This document shows positions 11-7,276 of a stretch of DNA of 7,276 bases, in pieces. Both the position numbers and the translations under genes were made by a program. The notes under the pieces are model-generated. The model did not search any database. It worked only from the letters and a program-made list of their open reading frames with translations, and was not told the DNA's origin. How positions within the stretch are numbered: the first letter of the stretch is position 1; each line of letters starts with the position of its first letter. This DNA comes from a virus. Lineage: Duplodnaviria > Heunggongvirae > Uroviricota > Caudoviricetes. The DNA lies in the IMG/VR virus record IMGVR_UViG_2547132272_000004, positions 1-7,276 of that record; one strand, 5' to 3'.

Positions 11-66
11 TTAAAAAGGGCGGACATCAGCCAGCAATGAAACTGATGCCGCCAAAAGGTAATCAA
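11..66 (-). ncRNA. dicF: DicF-like small RNA (3' end is an intrinsic terminator); 5' boundary approximate
   Basis: Minus strand reads ...GATTACCTTTTGGCGGCATCAGTTTCATTGCTGGCTGATGTCCGCCCTTTTTAAAG. The GGCGG-ATCAG ... CCGCCC-UUUUU part matches my recollection of the E. coli Qin DicF 3' half. It lies downstream of the dicA-side leftward operon, as in Qin. The 5' part differs from the K-12 sequence as I remember it. Confidence 0.4.
13..53 (-). terminator. Rho-independent terminator of the leftward early operon
   Basis: On the minus strand, stem GGCGGCATCAG / CTGATG(T)CCGCC (forward 19..30 pairs with 43..53, one bulged base), 12-nt loop, followed by a U5 run (forward A-run 13..17). Confidence 0.65.
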
Positions 67-393
67 CATGGGTTGTTGCAGCGGGGTTGTCACTCAGGCG
101 TATGGTCAACCTGACAACCCGGTGTTATCTCGAGGAAAAGATAGCCTCGCCATACTTACCGCCGCGCCATTTCGCGGATTGCCACAACCGGAAGCGCACG
201 GTCGAAGATGCCGGTGGCACGCAACAGAGGGAGAAATAACTTCGCCGTGCGCTTTCGCGTTATGCCCTGACTTTTCAGGGATATATCCTTTCAGTAAACT
301 GTCAGTGCCGGATTCTTATCCGTGTCCGGCGCACGACAACACGCTGTCACGTGTGGTCTCCATTCTCAACCAGTAACCTCAATGGAGGATAAA

Positions 394-636
394 ATGCCAA
401 CAAAACTATGCCCAGCCTGTAATTCTTCGTCTGATTTCTCAGAGAAGAATGGTTATTATATTTTTGATTGCCCGAAACACGGTGTATTCCATATATCAAA
501 ACTTGATGGGATATTTGTGAAACCAAGTCAGTATCAGGCTGACAAGTTAAATAAAATTCTCAATGCCAAAAGAGCGCCAGGCTATACGGGACCTATAGAG
601 GTTTTACCGCGTCCTCGTCTTGTGGAACTGGATTAA
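394..636 (+). CDS. hypothetical small zinc-ribbon-like protein (80 aa), antisense to the leftward operon
   Basis: ATG at 394 with GGAGG at 384..388 (5-nt spacer). CxxC (C6,C9) ... CxxH (C26,H29) pattern. Region visibly AT-rich. The 3' end overlaps the convergent 186-aa gene by 44 bp. An in-frame ATG at 382 has no SD. Confidence 0.5.
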   Translation: MPTKLCPACNSSSDFSEKNGYYIFDCPKHGVFHISKLDGIFVKPSQYQADKLNKILNAKRAPGYTGPIEVLPRPRLVELD

Positions 637-1153
637 ACCAGTGCTCCTGAATCGCTCGTATTTTTACCCTCGGATGATTGCCGGGGGTGATTATTAATTC
701 TGGCGGACATGGTTCTCCATTATGACAAATTGCGCTATAAGTGAAATCAGCCAGAGCAGTGCCGGTCATTATTATTCCGAACTTATCAAGCAGCGAGAGC
801 AAATCACGCAAACAGGAGTTATCAGTTTTTTCGTTATAAAATGAATCCCCTGATGCAGAGAGCATTTCACCTCGCTCTGCGATGCGTTTGACCATTTTCC
901 AGAATTCTTTTTTTGAATACTTTTCCTCGACATAAAAACCCATCGCCGAGGCAATCCGCTTTGCAGCTTCTTCAGTATCCTGGTTGTTTGTTACCGAAAC
1001 AGAGTACAATCCGATAAACGCATCGCGCACATTACGAGCCATATTATCAGTGTCTTTTTTCGTTACCGATTCCAATGCAAGTTCGTTCAGGTGTTGACGG
1101 AGTGTCTGTGCTGCAATCTCCTGGATTGATAGTGGTAAATCTTTAAATTCCAT
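593..1153 (-). CDS. hypothetical protein (186 aa), unknown function, in the early-left operon downstream of the ydfA/ydfB-like genes
   Basis: Long clean ORF. ATG at 1153..1151 with GGGG 6 nt upstream, 11 nt after the stop of the preceding small gene. Protein-like composition. No family recognised from the sequence. Confidence 0.7.
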   Translation of the reverse strand: MEFKDLPLSIQEIAAQTLRQHLNELALESVTKKDTDNMARNVRDAFIGLYSVSVTNNQDTEEAAKRIASAMGFYVEEKYSKKEFWKMVKRIAERGEMLSASGDSFYNEKTDNSCLRDLLSLLDKFGIIMTGTALADFTYSAICHNGEPCPPELIITPGNHPRVKIRAIQEHWFNPVPQDEDAVKPL

Positions 1154-3903: not shown

Positions 3904-4357
3904 GCAGCAAATCCGGCAGGTCTGCCGCCAGTGCATGGACCGTTGCAGGGCAGGTGAAACATGGCCTCCGGACCTGGCTGAGTTTGTGGCGCTGATTTCG
4001 GAAAGCGGGGCCAATCCATTTGGTCTGACGGTGGATGCTGTGATGGAGGAGTACCGACGCTGGCGCAATGAGTCCTGGCGATACGACGGAAGCGATAAAT
4101 ATCCGTGGCCTCAGCCTGTGCTGTATCACATTTGCCTCGAGATGCGTTCAAAGGGGATTGAGCGCCAGATGACCGAAGGTGAGTTAAAACGACTTGCAGA
4201 ACGGCAACTGGCGAAATGGGCAAAGCATGTTGGTGACGGCTTCAGCGTTCCGCCCGTACGGCGGCAACTGGCAGCACCAAAACGCCCGTCGGGGCCAACA
4301 CCAATTGAGTTGCTGAAACAGGAGTATGAACGCCGGAAAGCGGCTGGTTTTGTATGA
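3692..4357 (+). CDS. lambda P-like replication protein (helicase loader); start uncertain
   Basis: The C-terminal half (..WPPDLAEFVAL..KYPWPQP..) resembles lambda P as I recall it. ATG 3692 has GGGGG 6 nt upstream but would overlap the O-like gene by 212 bp in another frame. Alternative starts are ATG 3815 and ATG 3896, the latter in an ATGACTGA coupling arrangement. Confidence 0.6.
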   Translation: MQQHQVAPHHGQFRKFGQHVSGGSVKTDLSTTETAWKLWELMGEVYSNRWTQKNGAAPSKLWIAQIGAMTEQQIRQVCRQCMDRCRAGETWPPDLAEFVALISESGANPFGLTVDAVMEEYRRWRNESWRYDGSDKYPWPQPVLYHICLEMRSKGIERQMTEGELKRLAERQLAKWAKHVGDGFSVPPVRRQLAAPKRPSGPTPIELLKQEYERRKAAGFV

Positions 4358-4387
4358 ATTGTGAAGGTGATTTTTTCAGGAGGATTT

Positions 4388-4615
4388 ATGGCGAAACCTT
4401 TTTCTCTCGAACAGCGGGAAGAGCTGAAGGCACGAATTATCGGATTGGTACGCAAAAATGGACGCATGACGATGTCACAGCTGGAGAGAGCGACGGGAGC
4501 AGGCTGGCATTCGGTTCGACGCTGCCTTGTGGATGTGCTGGCTTGTGGCGATTTATACATGTCCGGTAAATACGGTGTTTTTTGCATCAGAGCAGGCGTA
4601 TCGCGTATGGCGTAA
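4388..4615 (+). CDS. hypothetical small protein (75 aa), possible winged-helix DNA-binding fold
   Basis: ATG 4388 with AGGAGG at 4378..4383. The segment MTMSQLERATGAGWHSVRRCLVDVL is HTH-like. Contains the T6 run at 4578..4583. Confidence 0.6.
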   Translation: MAKPFSLEQREELKARIIGLVRKNGRMTMSQLERATGAGWHSVRRCLVDVLACGDLYMSGKYGVFCIRAGVSRMA

Positions 4616-4784
4616 GACACCGGAGAAAAGAACCGACCTGACACTGATTCGAAAGTTACCAGACGGAGAAATACGCCGCTACGACAGGCGTCAGAACATA
4701 ATCTGTAGCGAGTGCCGGAAGAGCGAAGCTATGCAGCGCGTACTGGCGTTTTATCAGGGTAATTTTCAGGAGGTGGTGCGGTGA
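4533..4784 (+). CDS. hypothetical ORF overlapping the preceding gene, possibly its frameshifted continuation
   Basis: No start codon or SD lies downstream of the 4615 stop in this frame. The 3' end is coupled to the next gene (GTGA at 4781..4784). A one-base change in the T6 run at 4578..4583 would fuse it in frame to the 4388 ORF. Confidence 0.35.
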   Translation: MCWLVAIYTCPVNTVFFASEQAYRVWRKTPEKRTDLTLIRKLPDGEIRRYDRRQNIICSECRKSEAMQRVLAFYQGNFQEVVR

Positions 4785-5047
4785 GTGAATCAAAATGCCA
4801 GGTTAAGGGCAACAAGATAGAACCATGTGCAGCACTGGCAAAGTCCCTTGAGCATGATGCTGAATACACGATGCGAAAAGGTCTGCTGATATACAAAGTC
4901 TGGAATGAGAATTTAACTCGCGCCCCTGATTTGGTGATGTTGCGTTCCGGTGAATTTTCTAAATCACCTATTCGAGTCTCATTTTGCCCGTTCTGTGGTG
5001 AAAGTCTGAAAACATGGAAAAAGGAGACAACCAGTGAGCAAGATTGA
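4781..5047 (+). CDS. hypothetical small protein (88 aa) with C-terminal CPFC motif
   Basis: GTG start at 4781 with AGGAGG at 4768..4773 (7-nt spacer). Cysteines at C6, C16 and C69-x2-C72. Confidence 0.6.
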   Translation: MSESKCQVKGNKIEPCAALAKSLEHDAEYTMRKGLLIYKVWNENLTRAPDLVMLRSGEFSKSPIRVSFCPFCGESLKTWKKETTSEQD

Positions 5048-5933
5048 CTATCAGGCACTGCGTGAGGCGGCGGAACGTGCAATTCCAGCAATGGAACGCC
5101 TGTTAATGTTGCCAGCTGATGATGATTTGTTAAGTGAACAGGAACTTAAAGATTACGGTGTGGATATTGATGCGCTCAACGCCTTCAAATTTCTGGCCGG
5201 ACCAGAAACCGTGCTGGCACTACTGGATGAACGGGAAAGAAACCAGCAATACATAAAACGCCGAGACCAGGAAAACGAAATGATGGTTGATGCCATGCAC
5301 GCGGCTATTGCCCTGACAAGTGTTGGAATAGACCTGGACGATTACGACGAATGCGTCTTGCGACTACATGAATGGGGCGCTTTACCTGACTATTGCATTG
5401 CGCTTTATGTGGATTTCGTTCACGGAATTGTATCGAAAAACAAACTTCTGGATTTTGGTTATATCAACGGTGCACCGGTATGGACGTTGCGTGATGAGCT
5501 GGAAGCCGCAGAGAACAACCTTATTGATAGTGAGTGCCATGTTGCTGAACTGGAAGAAGCGCTACGCGATAAGCAGGCGTTACTTGAAGCATCAGAGAAG
5601 CGCATAGCAGAACTGGAAACAAAAGCGAACCAGCAAACCAGAATAAGCGATAAGGGGCTGACAAAGCTGATTGCCGATGCTGACAAAATGCTGGGTATGC
5701 GTTCGCCGGTTATAGACAGCGAGTGGTGGACGCTTTTACGGCAGTTCCTGATTGAACTTCAGGATCGCCGCAGAAACAGCATTTCTGAATCTGGAATCCG
5801 TGCTGAAACCCTGAATGATTTAATCCGACATATTGACAGAAACCTGGATATTGACGCGATGAAATCGCCGTTTGAACTGTCATCTGAAATTGTGGATTAC
5901 GTTAATAGGCAACTGCACAAGGAGAATTCGTAA
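5034..5933 (+). CDS. hypothetical coiled-coil protein (299 aa); N-terminus reminiscent of Ead/Ea22-like prophage proteins
   Basis: GTG start at 5034 with AAGGAGA at 5021..5027. The N-terminal M.IDYQALREAAERA resembles Ead/Ea22-like N-termini from memory only. Central heptad-like acidic region (ELEAAENNLIDSECHVAELEEALRDKQALLEASEKRIAELE). Confidence 0.65.
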   Translation: MSKIDYQALREAAERAIPAMERLLMLPADDDLLSEQELKDYGVDIDALNAFKFLAGPETVLALLDERERNQQYIKRRDQENEMMVDAMHAAIALTSVGIDLDDYDECVLRLHEWGALPDYCIALYVDFVHGIVSKNKLLDFGYINGAPVWTLRDELEAAENNLIDSECHVAELEEALRDKQALLEASEKRIAELETKANQQTRISDKGLTKLIADADKMLGMRSPVIDSEWWTLLRQFLIELQDRRRNSISESGIRAETLNDLIRHIDRNLDIDAMKSPFELSSEIVDYVNRQLHKENS

Positions 5934-6109
5934 TGCAGGTGGCATTTGTTGGCTTGTTACCGCATCCGATCCGCCTTTGGGCGGATATGTCACTCATAAA
6001 AACGCATTTTTTTACTACTGATGGCGGCATTCCGGCACCAAAGCGCCGCCATACCGGTATTGCAGCGGCACGACGAGCAGCAAAGAGACGCAGGAGAGCA
6101 AAACGATGA
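5933..6109 (+). CDS. hypothetical small protein (58 aa), hydrophobic N-terminus and Arg/Lys-rich tail
   Basis: ATG 5933 overlaps the upstream stop (TAATG), with AAGGAGAA 6 nt upstream. Below the ORF-track size cutoff. Two GC-rich hairpins lie within it, so coding status is uncertain. Confidence 0.35.
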   Translation: MQVAFVGLLPHPIRLWADMSLIKTHFFTTDGGIPAPKRRHTGIAAARRAAKRRRRAKR

Positions 6110-6294
6110 AAAACCGTAAAGCAAAGATTCTGTTAGCTCGCAGAAACGGTGTTGGGGTCTGGCGATGGTTGAGGATTAGTAACAGACGAGTGAGGTTGAC
6201 GGGGTGTTGCGGGGTGATGGGTCACAGCTGTTGCAAAAAGCCCAGCGCGGCGCAAAACCGCTGGAAAAACCACTTGCGCACTAAAGGAGAGTGA
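6106..6294 (+). CDS. hypothetical small basic protein (62 aa), Arg- and Cys-rich
   Basis: ATG 6106 overlaps the previous stop (ATGA), with AGGAG 9 nt upstream. Stop is 1 nt before the HNH gene start. Unusual composition. Confidence 0.35.
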   Translation: MKNRKAKILLARRNGVGVWRWLRISNRRVRLTGCCGVMGHSCCKKPSAAQNRWKNHLRTKGE

Positions 6295-6295
6295 T

Positions 6296-6661
6296 ATGGC
6301 ACTGACGAAAAAACAACGTGCAGAACTGCGCATGAAGTTCGGCGGTCGCTGCGCTTATTGCGGCTGCGAACTTGGCGAAAAGTGGCATGCAGACCATGTA
6401 AAACCGGTCATTCGTTTTGATGGAAATATGCTTCACCAGGAACGTGACGATATATCCAACATGGTTCCGGCATGCCACCCATGCAATCTGCACAAGCATT
6501 GCAGTAGCCTGGAAGATTATCGGCGAATTATCAGTGATGGTCGTCGTGAATTCCTTGCGTCCGGGAAAGGCAAAGCGCTGGTTCGTATGGGATTGGTTGA
6601 AATGAAACCTGACCCGGTTGTGTTCTGGTTTGAAAAATATCAAGAAGGGGCTACAGCATGA
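6296..6661 (+). CDS. HNH endonuclease (121 aa)
   Basis: AAGGAGA at 6283..6289 before ATG 6296. Canonical HNH/zinc-finger pattern: CAYCGC ... HADHVKP ... [14 protein letters not shown]. Confidence 0.85.
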
Positions 6662-7002
6662 CGACTTTTACCAGAGAGCAGTTAATAGCTCACGCAGAGG
6701 AGACTATTGAAGCACAGAGACTGTGCATACCGGGCACAATCGACCATGACATCATCCGCACATATAAGATGGATATTGCTGTTCTGGAAATCGCACTGGT
6801 ATCGCTGGCAGCAGAGCCAGCCGGTAAATTGCATGAATACAAACCAGTGGGATATCAGCGTCTGGTTGATGAGTTAATCATGCTGGTAAAGCAGTTAACC
6901 TGGCAACTGAGGAAAGCGAAGCCAGACTGCAAATTACCGGATAAGGCGATGAGTTATCTGGAGCGGAACGGACTGATAAGCGTGGAGGATATTTTACGAT
7001 GA
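6658..7002 (+). CDS. hypothetical protein (114 aa)
   Basis: ATG 6658 overlaps the HNH stop (ATGA), consistent with translational coupling. Protein-like composition. No family recognised. Confidence 0.6.
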
Positions 7003-7235
7003 CTGGCCTGAAGCATTCACAACGGTAGGAATTGCGATGGCAGTGGCGCTGGTGGTGTATTCGATTTGCCGCTGGGGATAAAAACGGTTTGCGGGAAAAA
7101 GGGAGTTAAGTAAAATTGCTGCGGGTGCTTGAGGCTATCTGTCTCAGGCATGAACACCAAAAGGCAGATAGAGAAAAGCCCCAGTTAACATTACGCGTCC
7201 TGCAAGACGCTTAACATTAATCTGAGGCCCAATCT

Positions 7236-7276
7236 ATGTCTCACAAATGTAGGTTAGCCTCTTACGTGCCGAAAGG
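7236..7276 (+). CDS. possible 5' end of a CDS running off the window (MSHKCRLASYVPK...)
   Basis: ATG 7236 with GAGG at 7224..7227. Open to the window end. Only 13 codons are visible. Confidence 0.25.
   Translation, partial: MSHKCRLASYVPK

Follow-up and report, generated by a model that had tools for sequence, protein, structure and literature searches.

The closest known systems to the locus analyzed here are the Ea22 proteins of lambda and the Stx phages, the ea region of P22, the exo-xis region of 933W, and the nin genes of lambda. Members of the Ea22 family from lambda and Stx phages are tetrameric and favor lysogeny (PMC7093339, PMC10834534). This pro-lysogenic role is known for the lambda and Stx members only (PMC7093339, PMC10834534), and the lambda Ea22 C-terminal domain on its own is inactive. 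Published descriptions of the family give a mosaic architecture, in which an N-terminal leader, a conserved core motif, and a central coiled coil are followed by a swappable C-terminal domain, and the gene lies between exo and xis in the leftward (pL) operon. The P22 ea region (eaD-eaI-eaA) and the 933W exo-xis region (L0069-L0068-L0067-L0066-L0065), which are likewise in pL, run from an EaD/Ea22-like gene through small genes to an EaA-like gene. The lambda nin genes (NinB, NinE, NinG/Rap, and others) occupy the interval between the replication genes and Q and are non-essential, tightly packed, and translationally coupled.

Here we analyze a block of five genes at positions 5034 to 7002 of a 7,276-nucleotide window, the window being the whole stretch of DNA examined. 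The five packed genes are real but ordinary: they are a patchwork of known "ea/nin"-type accessory genes and not a dedicated five-gene system. With a probability of roughly three in four, we read the block as an ea-type (exo-xis-like) accessory cassette of exchangeable modules that occupies the nin-equivalent region in a lambdoid prophage of the Qin/Rac type. The initial annotation of this DNA had allowed for all members being well-known nin-region families with established functions; the families proved to be known ones, but their functions are not established.

Genomic setting and gene organization

The window is the entire contig AEJW01000078.1 of Escherichia sp. TW09231; it holds a Qin/Rac-type lambdoid prophage over its immunity and replication region. 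O, P, and DUF977 flank the block on one side and hok/sok, DUF968, RusA, and Q on the other. The full prophage layout could be taken from locus L003 and consists of int, a YdfE-like exonuclease, and DicB; then cI, cro, YdaT, O, P, DUF977, p88, and the block; then hok, DUF968, RusA, and Q. PGAP annotation of related E. coli prophages is consistent with this layout, and together they bear out the earlier placement of the block in the rightward delayed-early operon of a lambdoid prophage. The position corresponds to that of the lambda nin genes. The features considered are as follows.

4781-5047, + strand: p88, an 88-aa gene and upstream member of the packed run (phrog_4030, E = 3.7e-40; pN/pS 0.29; C-terminal CPFCG motif)
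5034-5933, + strand: 299-aa ORF with a GTG start
5933-6109, + strand: 58-aa ORF (p58)
6106-6294, + strand: 62-aa ORF (p62)
6296-6661, + strand: 121-aa ORF (HNH)
6658-7002, + strand: 114-aa ORF (p114)
6283-6679, no strand assigned: HNH-carrying DNA module, in which homology begins 12-13 nt 5' of the ATG and in many loci ends 5-18 nt after the stop
6999-7084, + strand: conserved segment after the block, recurrent in many loci at 92-96% identity

The initial annotation described five tightly packed plus-strand ORFs that overlap start to stop and end in the HNH gene. The packing stands, but the overlap is not continuous and the HNH gene is the fourth, with the 114-aa gene last. Three of the four junctions overlap, by 1 nt between the 299-aa gene and p58 (TAATG) and by 4 nt both between p58 and p62 and between HNH and p114 (ATGA in each case), whereas p62 and HNH are separated by a 1-nt gap (TGAtATG). 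An AGGAG-like Shine-Dalgarno (SD) sequence is found 7-10 nt 5' of each of the five ORFs, within the final codons of the preceding gene. The packing also extends upstream into p88, so the boundary at 5034 is arbitrary. The 3' end of p88 overlaps the start of the 299-aa gene by 14 nt, an overlap seen again in other prophages, where p88 also precedes Ea22-like genes.

All five ORFs match PHROG families (E from 1e-24 to 1e-57) and are therefore beyond chance. An excess of variation at third codon positions and a pN/pS below 1 are seen in the annotated frame only, for HNH (0.09, denoting strong purifying selection), p114 (0.29), and p62 (0.37). No sigma-70-like promoter and no intrinsic terminator are predicted on the + strand between 4300 and 7276, and tRNA and Rfam scans returned no match inside the block. 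The sequence suggests that the block is read from pR within one long delayed-early transcript running rightward, in which the replication genes come before it and hok/sok, DUF968, RusA, and Q come behind it. Each cistron has an SD of its own within the final part of the gene before it and would be translationally coupled to its neighbor through the stop/start overlaps. The DUF977 gene upstream of p88 is frameshifted, so that ribosome coupling from the replication genes would be broken before p88.

The 299-aa protein belongs to the Ead/Ea22-like family

The initial annotation had left the 299-aa protein unassigned and treated the HNH nuclease as the sole recognizable member of the block. This cannot be maintained, as aa 2-91 of the 299-aa protein match PF13935 (Ead/Ea22-like) with E = 4.1e-25 and a score of 89.4 bits, the cut-off being 27. 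It has more than 7900 relatives, and an identical protein is named ead/Ea22-like by NCBI. The protein is acidic (pI 4.6), and its different segments, listed here, match different PHROGs.

aa 1-14: leader
aa 15-56: variable segment
aa 57-82: conserved core (LALLDERERNQQYIKRRDQENE)
aa 83-155: optional insert
aa 156-198: coiled coil
aa 199-299: C-terminal domain

Within the core motif, L63, L64, E66, E80, N81, and E82 are invariant in an alignment of 36 relatives. Pfam coiled-coil families match aa 150-211, and the AF2 monomer model, which is poor (pLDDT 61.7), is all helical with a continuous long helix at 150-201. This mosaic architecture agrees with that published for Ea22, from the leader and core motif through the coiled coil to the swappable C-terminal domain. 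At 299 aa the protein is longer than lambda Ea22 (182 aa), and an additional segment of ~63-73 aa, known from the Stx Ea22 variants, is present in it. The C-terminal domain (aa 199-299), on the other hand, is unlike the solved lambda Ea22 C-terminal domain and is without DUF551; a sequence search of the PDB with the 299-aa protein gave no match to the lambda domain, and a fold search against the PDB gave nothing below E = 1. The lysogeny-promoting Ea22 proteins of lambda and Stx phages have C-terminal domains that differ from the one present here. In keeping with the initial annotation, structure prediction and fold search yielded no biochemical function for the C-terminal part of this protein or for p114.

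We take the 299-aa protein to be an Ead/Ea22-like scaffold, in which a conserved N terminus and a coiled coil are combined with a C-terminal domain that can be swapped. On the model of the lambda and Stx members, it would most likely oligomerize through its coiled coil and bias the lysis/lysogeny decision toward lysogeny through some partner. Its gene differs from theirs in location, as it lies downstream of O, P, and DUF977 in the rightward operon, whereas theirs belong to the leftward early operon and its exo-xis region. Such pR-side placement of Ea22-like genes is common in E. coli prophages.

The small basic proteins and the EaA-like gene

The two genes that follow encode very basic proteins. 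p58 has a pI of 12.0 and an Arg/Lys-rich tail, RRAAKRRRRAKR, and matches phrog_13831 over its full length (E = 1.6e-24); p62 has a pI of 11.8 and matches phrog_1380 (E = 1.3e-32), and its final codons (KGE, stop) carry the SD of the HNH gene. That p62 might be a spurious junction ORF can be ruled out by its frame, which is open in 29 of 29 distinct variants, and by the third-position bias of its variable sites (19, 19, and 32 by codon position). In 60 of the 80 best-scoring p62 loci, a p58 homolog (49-100% identical, with the basic tail conserved) lies directly 5' of p62; as in each of our scans, the 80 loci are the best-scoring and phylogenetically close ones, and counts over them are not counts of independent events. 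A spurious origin is unlikely for p58 as well, given identity conserved at ~50-60% in these 60 loci, but it has few close variants, and its selection test, based on 2 sequences only, is weak. An Ea22-like gene is upstream of p62 in 47 of the same 80 loci, and HNH is present in only 3 of them. The question of spurious ORFs arose because the DNA at 6087-6119, read in a different frame, is where Ea22 variants have their 3' end (...DAGEQNDEKP). We conclude that p58 and p62 form a conserved pair of very basic small proteins, which, going by their composition only, probably bind nucleic acid.

The last gene of the block, p114, matches phrog_660 (E = 2.6e-42). Its product consists of an N-terminal helical hairpin, a short linker, and a portable C-terminal module of ~45 aa (ELIMLVKQL...) that is also present in N15 gp45, ST64B sb32, and Rac. 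The relatives of p114 are modular, and some are named Eaa or DUF551; an N-terminal consensus, MTTxTKExL..., and the 45-aa module are clearly common to p114 and proteins so named. With EaA and L0065 themselves, BLASTP gave only weak matches at the N terminus (E = 0.03 and 0.013, respectively). Compared with P22 EaA and 933W L0065, p114 is a minimal form without DUF551 (PF04448). It has no Pfam match, and DUF551 is found in only 2 of 32 aligned relatives. The AF2 model is all helical (pLDDT 78), and Foldseek searches with it against the PDB and BFVD gave generic helical-hairpin matches only (best E = 0.65 and 0.04). In the loci examined from E. coli, Salmonella, and Klebsiella, HNH is normally followed by a hypervariable EaA-like gene, of which p114 is the shortest version. 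The conserved segment behind it includes a 14-codon hydrophobic ORF at 7037-7081 (MAVALVVYSICRWG), and in loci L024, L035, and L043 the p114 homolog ends in a fusion to the MAVALVVYSICRWG peptide.

The HNH nuclease is a resident of nin regions

The 121-aa protein matches PF01844 (28.2 bits against a cut-off of 21.4) and phrog_2118 (E = 1e-56) and is a small, stand-alone, zinc-ribbon HNH (His-Me finger) protein in which no additional Pfam domain was found. C19, C22, H31, D33, H34, N55, C60, C63, and N64 do not vary among 37 homologs, the most distant of which are ~50% identical, and the D-H...N...N/H catalytic motif and the four zinc-binding Cys are both present. The protein is accordingly predicted here to be an active-looking, metal-dependent enzyme that nicks or cuts DNA. 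The closest solved structure is the HNH protein 4H9D of Geobacter metallireducens (112 aa), with which the CxxC...DH...N...CxxCN motifs align; the similarity is weak (profile E = 7e-5) and limited to a core of ~55 residues, and the conserved C-terminal 50 residues of the family (R76, F110, E113) have no counterpart in 4H9D. Membership in NinG/Rap (PF05766) was rejected at 18.1 bits against a cut-off of 25.4, the likeness being confined to the HNH-like core, and all five block proteins stay below the Pfam threshold for any named Nin family. PADLOC and NCBIfam gave weak matches to PtuB, IscB, and retron HNH, again in the HNH core only, and a Septu/retron PtuB-type defense role, which calls for an ABC ATPase (PtuA) or retron components beside the gene, was discarded, since neither the window nor L003 has an ATPase or reverse transcriptase gene.

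The HNH gene of L003 lies between the replication genes and hok/RusA/Q, and the homologs examined lie in early or nin regions. In prophages of Klebsiella, Yersinia, Pantoea, and Providencia, they are found among NinB, NinE, NinG, and Q, such homologs from other genera directly adjoining NinB, NinE, and NinG. The HNH protein thus turns up regularly in the nin regions of Enterobacterales prophages, and it most likely acts on phage or host DNA in replication or recombination rather than in packaging. One E. coli relative is found ~2 kb upstream of a terminase gene, with six genes between.

Probable assembly of the block from exchangeable modules

A search of 5426 complete E. coli genomes and 50,697 phage records found none with at least 80% of the block in one place. 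When 80 loci whose HNH is 94-100% identical were compared, all five genes were together only in L008, which is the same phage. The high variability of gene content that the initial annotation expected at this position is thus evident across the genomes and loci compared, while its notion of one five-gene functional unit is not sustained, as the combination is confined to copies of the same phage and the genes assort as independent sub-blocks. The recombining sub-blocks are Ea22-p58-p62 and HNH-EaA-like, joined at conserved junctions. For the HNH module, the left boundary is at 6283/6284 in 65 loci, and the right boundary is at 6666-6679 in ~45 loci and at 7082 in 19. The slot after DUF4014 (80 loci) holds HNH in 23, an unrelated 87-aa gene in 26, a 95-aa gene like 933W L0066 in 12, and nothing in 17, and HNH is therefore one of at least three unrelated cassettes that occupy a single slot. 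The possibility that the 87-aa cassette is a decayed HNH was dismissed, as its likeness to HNH is limited to the first 10 residues.

Both the genes and their order recur in the ea region of P22 and in the exo-xis regions of the phages 933W and ArgO145, and the block follows the P22 and 933W order of an EaD/Ea22-like gene, small genes, and an EaA-like gene, in pR instead of pL. Positions 5476-5612 and 6028-6300 of the window are 87-90% identical to 933W DNA, and the style of junction, with the SD borne by the gene end, is common to the block, the P22 ea region, and the 933W exo-xis region. HNH fills the slot where 933W has L0066, and P22 is without HNH at the corresponding position. On our reading, the five genes are modules that can each be exchanged on their own within a conserved order (EaD/Ea22, small genes, optional cassette, EaA), and exchange takes place at short conserved junctions, namely SD-containing gene ends such as ...KGE-stop and the conserved first 7-14 codons.

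Alternative readings of the HNH gene

The sharp and recurrent boundaries of the HNH module could also be expected of a selfish, free-standing homing endonuclease, which would cut HNH-less genomes near the slot, be copied in with its flanks by recombinational repair, and so drive the mosaicism. The protein is 94-100% identical across many different flanks, presence/absence polymorphism is seen in the 17 of 80 loci with an EaA-like gene directly after DUF4014, and it has been remarked, in the manner of a review, that some lambdoid HNH genes appear mobile (PMC12315714). However, the same slot and junctions serve, equally often, two unrelated non-nuclease cassettes (87 and 95 aa), so that junction-mediated exchange is possible without a nuclease. 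The HNH protein, at only 121 aa, has no extra DNA-recognition domain that was detected, and degenerate copies were not seen among the 80 slot loci. Across genera the family diverges in a graded manner, from 98% to 46% identity, at the same nin-region position and under strong purifying selection, which looks like a retained phage function and not like a cycle of gain, decay, and loss. We therefore regard homing as unlikely.

A second alternative, which we consider less probable again, arises from the gene that follows HNH. In 74 of the 80 best-scoring loci, the HNH stop lies within a 4-nt overlap with the start of an MTTxT... gene. The same ATGA coupling recurs in a prophage of Klebsiella, where the HNH is 61% identical and the partner is a DUF551 protein, and in an element of Salmonella with a 49% identical HNH. 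This repeated coupling could mean that the two are a functional pair, a point that a reading of independent modules underweights. It could be speculated that the EaA N-terminal hairpin docks on the nuclease, while the variable body or C-terminal module redirects or regulates it, p114 being the minimal form. A hypervariable partner beside a nearly invariant HNH is a pattern typical of arms-race interfaces, and lambdoid early-region hotspots hold anti-defense genes (bioRxiv 10.64898/2026.07.10.737580). If true, such a module would be a cassette-diversified phage nuclease system for exclusion of rival phages, host takeover, counter-defense, or initiation of recombination. Yet the homologs from Yersinia, Pantoea, Providencia, and Comamonas lack this pairing, and an EaA-like gene can equally be found behind either of the unrelated cassettes (87 and 95 aa) or immediately behind DUF4014, so that EaA is not dependent on HNH. 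Support from PADLOC or other families, similarity to EaE, and an informative fold match were all wanting. Nor is the anti-defense role raised in the initial annotation favored by these searches, as PADLOC gave generic HNH similarity only and no window protein resembles P22 EaE, a reported relative of the anti-OLD protein Oad2 (no significant BLASTP match, best E = 9.9).

Finally, it is highly improbable that HNH assists terminase in cos/pac cleavage in the way of HK97 gp74 while encoded far from the packaging genes, for although its 121 aa and zinc-ribbon HNH architecture resemble gp74-type proteins and its closest solved structure is the small HNH 4H9D, similarity to gp74 is not detectable (no BLASTP alignment; hhalign probability 0.3%, E = 0.18) and the gene is in the early or nin region in all contexts examined, never adjoining terminase. 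On these two grounds, the lack of gp74 similarity and the early-region position, the earlier view that this HNH is not of the terminase-associated kind is upheld.

Implications

Read as a cassette of exchangeable modules, the block occurs in pieces across thousands of E. coli prophages and Stx phages and comprises lambdoid accessory genes that are already cataloged. The analysis mainly clears a false lead, and no long-standing question is opened by the block alone. Three points are of residual value, the first being a widespread nin-region HNH family under strong purifying selection. Second, the conserved junctions, with their SD-bearing gene ends and common first codons, show a route by which single-gene cassettes are swapped. 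Third, Ea-type genes are usually discussed as the pL "exo-xis region," and the pR nin region is an equally common home for them.

Genomic context of the block

The window corresponds to the entire 7276-bp contig AEJW01000078.1 (GCA_000208465.2), and Escherichia sp. TW09231 has a protein identical to its 299-aa product. The full prophage context is provided by L003, a 95-kb metagenome contig of the same sequence, in which an integrase, a YdfE-like exonuclease, DUF1482, and DicB are followed by a CI-like repressor, Cro, a YdaT-family protein, a DnaT-like replication protein, P, and DUF977, and then by p88 (an 88-aa protein), the five block genes, hok, DUF968, RusA, and antiterminator Q. PGAP annotations of the nearest E. 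coli prophages are in agreement. Together with the Rfam matches, these contexts identify the window as a Qin/Rac-type lambdoid prophage and place the block in the rightward delayed-early operon, where lambda has its nin region.

Several features surround the block. A DicF-like RNA (18-68, minus strand) scores 34.1 bits in Rfam, under the gathering score of 48, at the expected site between ydfA/B/C-like ORFs and dicB, the latter seen in L003. Between this RNA and the ydfA/B-like genes lie a convergent 80-104-aa ORF with a CxxC...C motif (322-636, plus strand) and a 186-aa ORF without family assignment (593-1153, minus strand), both gene-called in all three assemblies. A sok/hok type I toxin-antitoxin locus (7123-7276, plus strand; RF01794, 101 bits) is interrupted by the window end; a hok gene (PF01848) comes next in L003, and E. 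coli (L001) has an annotated hokD at the equivalent place. The DUF977 gene (Ren-like, phrog_142; 4361-4784) carries one additional T, which divides it between two reading frames: the run at 4573-4578 is T6, versus T5 in five intact homologs, including one that is 99.8% identical. This frameshift, common to three separate assemblies (L003, L004, and L005), interrupts ribosome coupling upstream of the block, and the split gene may represent either a pseudogene or a site prone to slippage.

Gene layout and coding evidence

Genes of the block.
5034-5933, plus strand: 299-aa Ead/Ea22-like ORF, GTG start
5933-6109, plus strand: p58, 58-aa ORF
6106-6294, plus strand: p62, 62-aa ORF
6296-6661, plus strand: HNH nuclease-like ORF, 121 aa
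6658-7002, plus strand: p114, 114-aa ORF

The initial annotation described five consecutive overlapping ORFs ending in the HNH gene. The observation is real but slightly misdescribed: the ORFs are genuine and tightly packed, with junctions TAATG, ATGA, TGAtATG, and ATGA, of which the third leaves a 1-nt gap and the others overlap by 1, 4, and 4 nt, and the HNH gene occupies the fourth position, with p114 last. The run also starts upstream of 5034, since the p88 gene (4781-5047) shares 14 nt with the 299-aa gene, an arrangement also annotated in related prophages. An AGGAG-like Shine-Dalgarno sequence precedes every start within the final codons of the preceding gene, and prediction over 4300-7276 gave no sigma-70-like promoter and no intrinsic terminator for this strand (plus). 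Transcription would probably proceed from pR, with the genes translationally coupled.

Each of the five proteins has a PHROG family match, with E between 1.6e-24 and 1.1e-56. In homologous DNA drawn from 80-160 viral contigs, variable sites in the HNH gene fall 16/10/76 at codon positions 1/2/3 and pN/pS is 0.09; the ratio is 0.29 for p114 and 0.37 for p62, whose frame is open in all 29 distinct variants, with stops in the other two frames in every one. Close variants of p58 are too few for pN/pS or the codon-position test; 60 of 80 loci have a 49-100% identical homolog, likewise ending in the Arg/Lys tail, immediately 5' of p62. Both p58 and p62 are very basic (pI 12.0 and 11.8) and probably bind nucleic acid.

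The Ead/Ea22-like and p114 proteins

The HNH nuclease had been considered the only recognizable member, yet the 299-aa protein is clearly Ead/Ea22-like (PF13935, 89.4 bits versus a cut-off of 27), with more than 7900 relatives. Alignment of 36 of these reveals a combinatorial mosaic.

Segments of the 299-aa protein.
aa 1-14: conserved leader
aa 15-56: variable stretch
aa 57-82: nearly invariant core, LALLDERERNQQYIKRRDQENE
aa 83-155: optional insert
aa 156-198: coiled coil
aa 199-299: C-terminal domain

This agrees with the published Ea22 of lambda and Stx phages, in which an N-terminal segment and coiled coil precede unrelated C-terminal domains, and Stx variants carry an additional 63-aa segment; these proteins are tetrameric, and gene deletion reveals a lysogeny-favoring role (PMC10834534, PMC7093339). 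The protein described here probably likewise oligomerizes through its coiled coil and favors lysogeny via some partner. Its C-terminal domain has no PDB match, and Foldseek with the poor, all-helical AF2 monomer (pLDDT 61.7) found nothing. In a Salmonella element (L173, 4801-5811), a 336-aa protein joins an Ead/Ea22-like N terminus to an exonuclease domain of the RNase T/DnaQ type, and a 49% identical HNH homolog lies two genes downstream; the Ea22 scaffold can therefore carry an enzymatic C-terminal domain.

p114 has no match in Pfam, NCBIfam, or PADLOC. It is a modular member of phrog_660: its N terminus and C-terminal 45 residues reappear in longer proteins named Eaa or DUF551-containing, and the C-terminal module occurs by itself in N15 gp45, ST64B sb32, Rac, and others. 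Its AF2 model (pLDDT 78), a helical hairpin plus three helices, has no informative neighbor in PDB or BFVD. The functions of p114 and the 299-aa protein stay unassigned, as first annotated.

Exchange of modules

Searches of 5426 complete E. coli genomes and 50,697 phage records turned up no entry with at least 80% of the block in one place; parts of it are found in 2641 genomes. In a comparison of 80 viral contigs whose HNH is 94-100% identical, all five genes were present only in the copy of this same phage, and just 3 of 80 p62 loci have HNH. A single five-gene unit is therefore not upheld. Two sub-blocks recur instead: Ea22-like, p58, and p62; and HNH followed, in 74 of 80 loci, by an ATGA-overlapping gene starting MTTxT..., whose product ranges from 114 to 364 aa, often with DUF551 at its end.

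The HNH module has sharp DNA edges: its left edge falls at 6283/6284, its right edge at 6666-6679 or 7082. Downstream of its usual upstream gene, DUF4014 (loci L175-L254), the slot is filled by HNH at 23 loci, by an unrelated gene of 87 aa at 26, and by a 933W L0066-type gene of 95 aa at 12, and is empty at 17. The three occupants are alike only over their first ~10 codons, MA(T)LTKK(Q/E)RA, and many gene ends in the region (...KGE-stop or ...KES-stop) form the next gene's Shine-Dalgarno sequence. Modules are exchanged at such short conserved junctions, namely SD-bearing gene ends and shared first codons.

Two further features were observed. Read in another frame, 6087-6119 encodes ...DAGEQNDEKP-stop, the C-terminal end of several other phages' Ea22-like variants; the p58 3' end and p62 start thus reuse a junction that closes the Ea22 gene elsewhere. 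An ~85-bp segment 3' of the last gene (6999-7084) is 92-96% conserved in many otherwise differing loci and contains a 14-codon hydrophobic ORF (7037-7081, MAVALVVYSICRWG); three loci have this peptide joined to the end of the p114 homolog.

The HNH family and the nature of the block

The HNH protein scores above the Pfam threshold, and 37 homologs, with identities as low as ~50%, all keep C19, C22, H31, D33, H34, N55, C60, C63, and N64; its closest counterpart of known structure is the small HNH 4H9D (profile E=7e-5). Identity with NinG was considered and rejected, the score falling under threshold. Among more distant homologs, a 61% identical protein is encoded in a Klebsiella prophage between DnaB and NinE, NinG, and Q, its gene being followed by that of a DUF551 protein; the Yersinia homolog adjoins NinB, that of Pantoea lies between NinE and NinG, and that of Providencia is near NinB and NinG. 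From these contexts, the HNH family is a regular resident of the nin region. The protein would probably nick or cut DNA during replication or recombination.

A homing-type selfish element would be an unlikely explanation for the HNH gene, as unrelated cassettes occupy the same slot and divergence in the family is graded and under purifying selection. It is more doubtful still that HNH forms a two-component module with the EaA-like protein, which is absent beside the homologs in Yersinia, Pantoea, Providencia, and Comamonas. A terminase helper is highly improbable: a relationship with HK97 gp74 is not detectable, in line with the original view of a non-terminase HNH.

According to a recent preprint, early-region hotspots of lambdoid phages encode the anti-OLD protein Oad2, a relative of P22 EaE (bioRxiv 10.64898/2026.07.10.737580). 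None of the window proteins resembles P22 EaE, and no evidence was found for the anti-defense role once suggested. Of the initial annotation, then, the variable region, the unassigned functions, and the non-terminase HNH stand; the single unit and the sole recognizable HNH do not.

The same genes are found in 933W, Sakai, and ArgO145 in the exo-xis (pL) region, and P22 has the same order, eaD-eaI-eaA. On this basis, the block is a cassette of the ea type located in the pR operon, and as such a lambdoid accessory mosaic of an already known kind.
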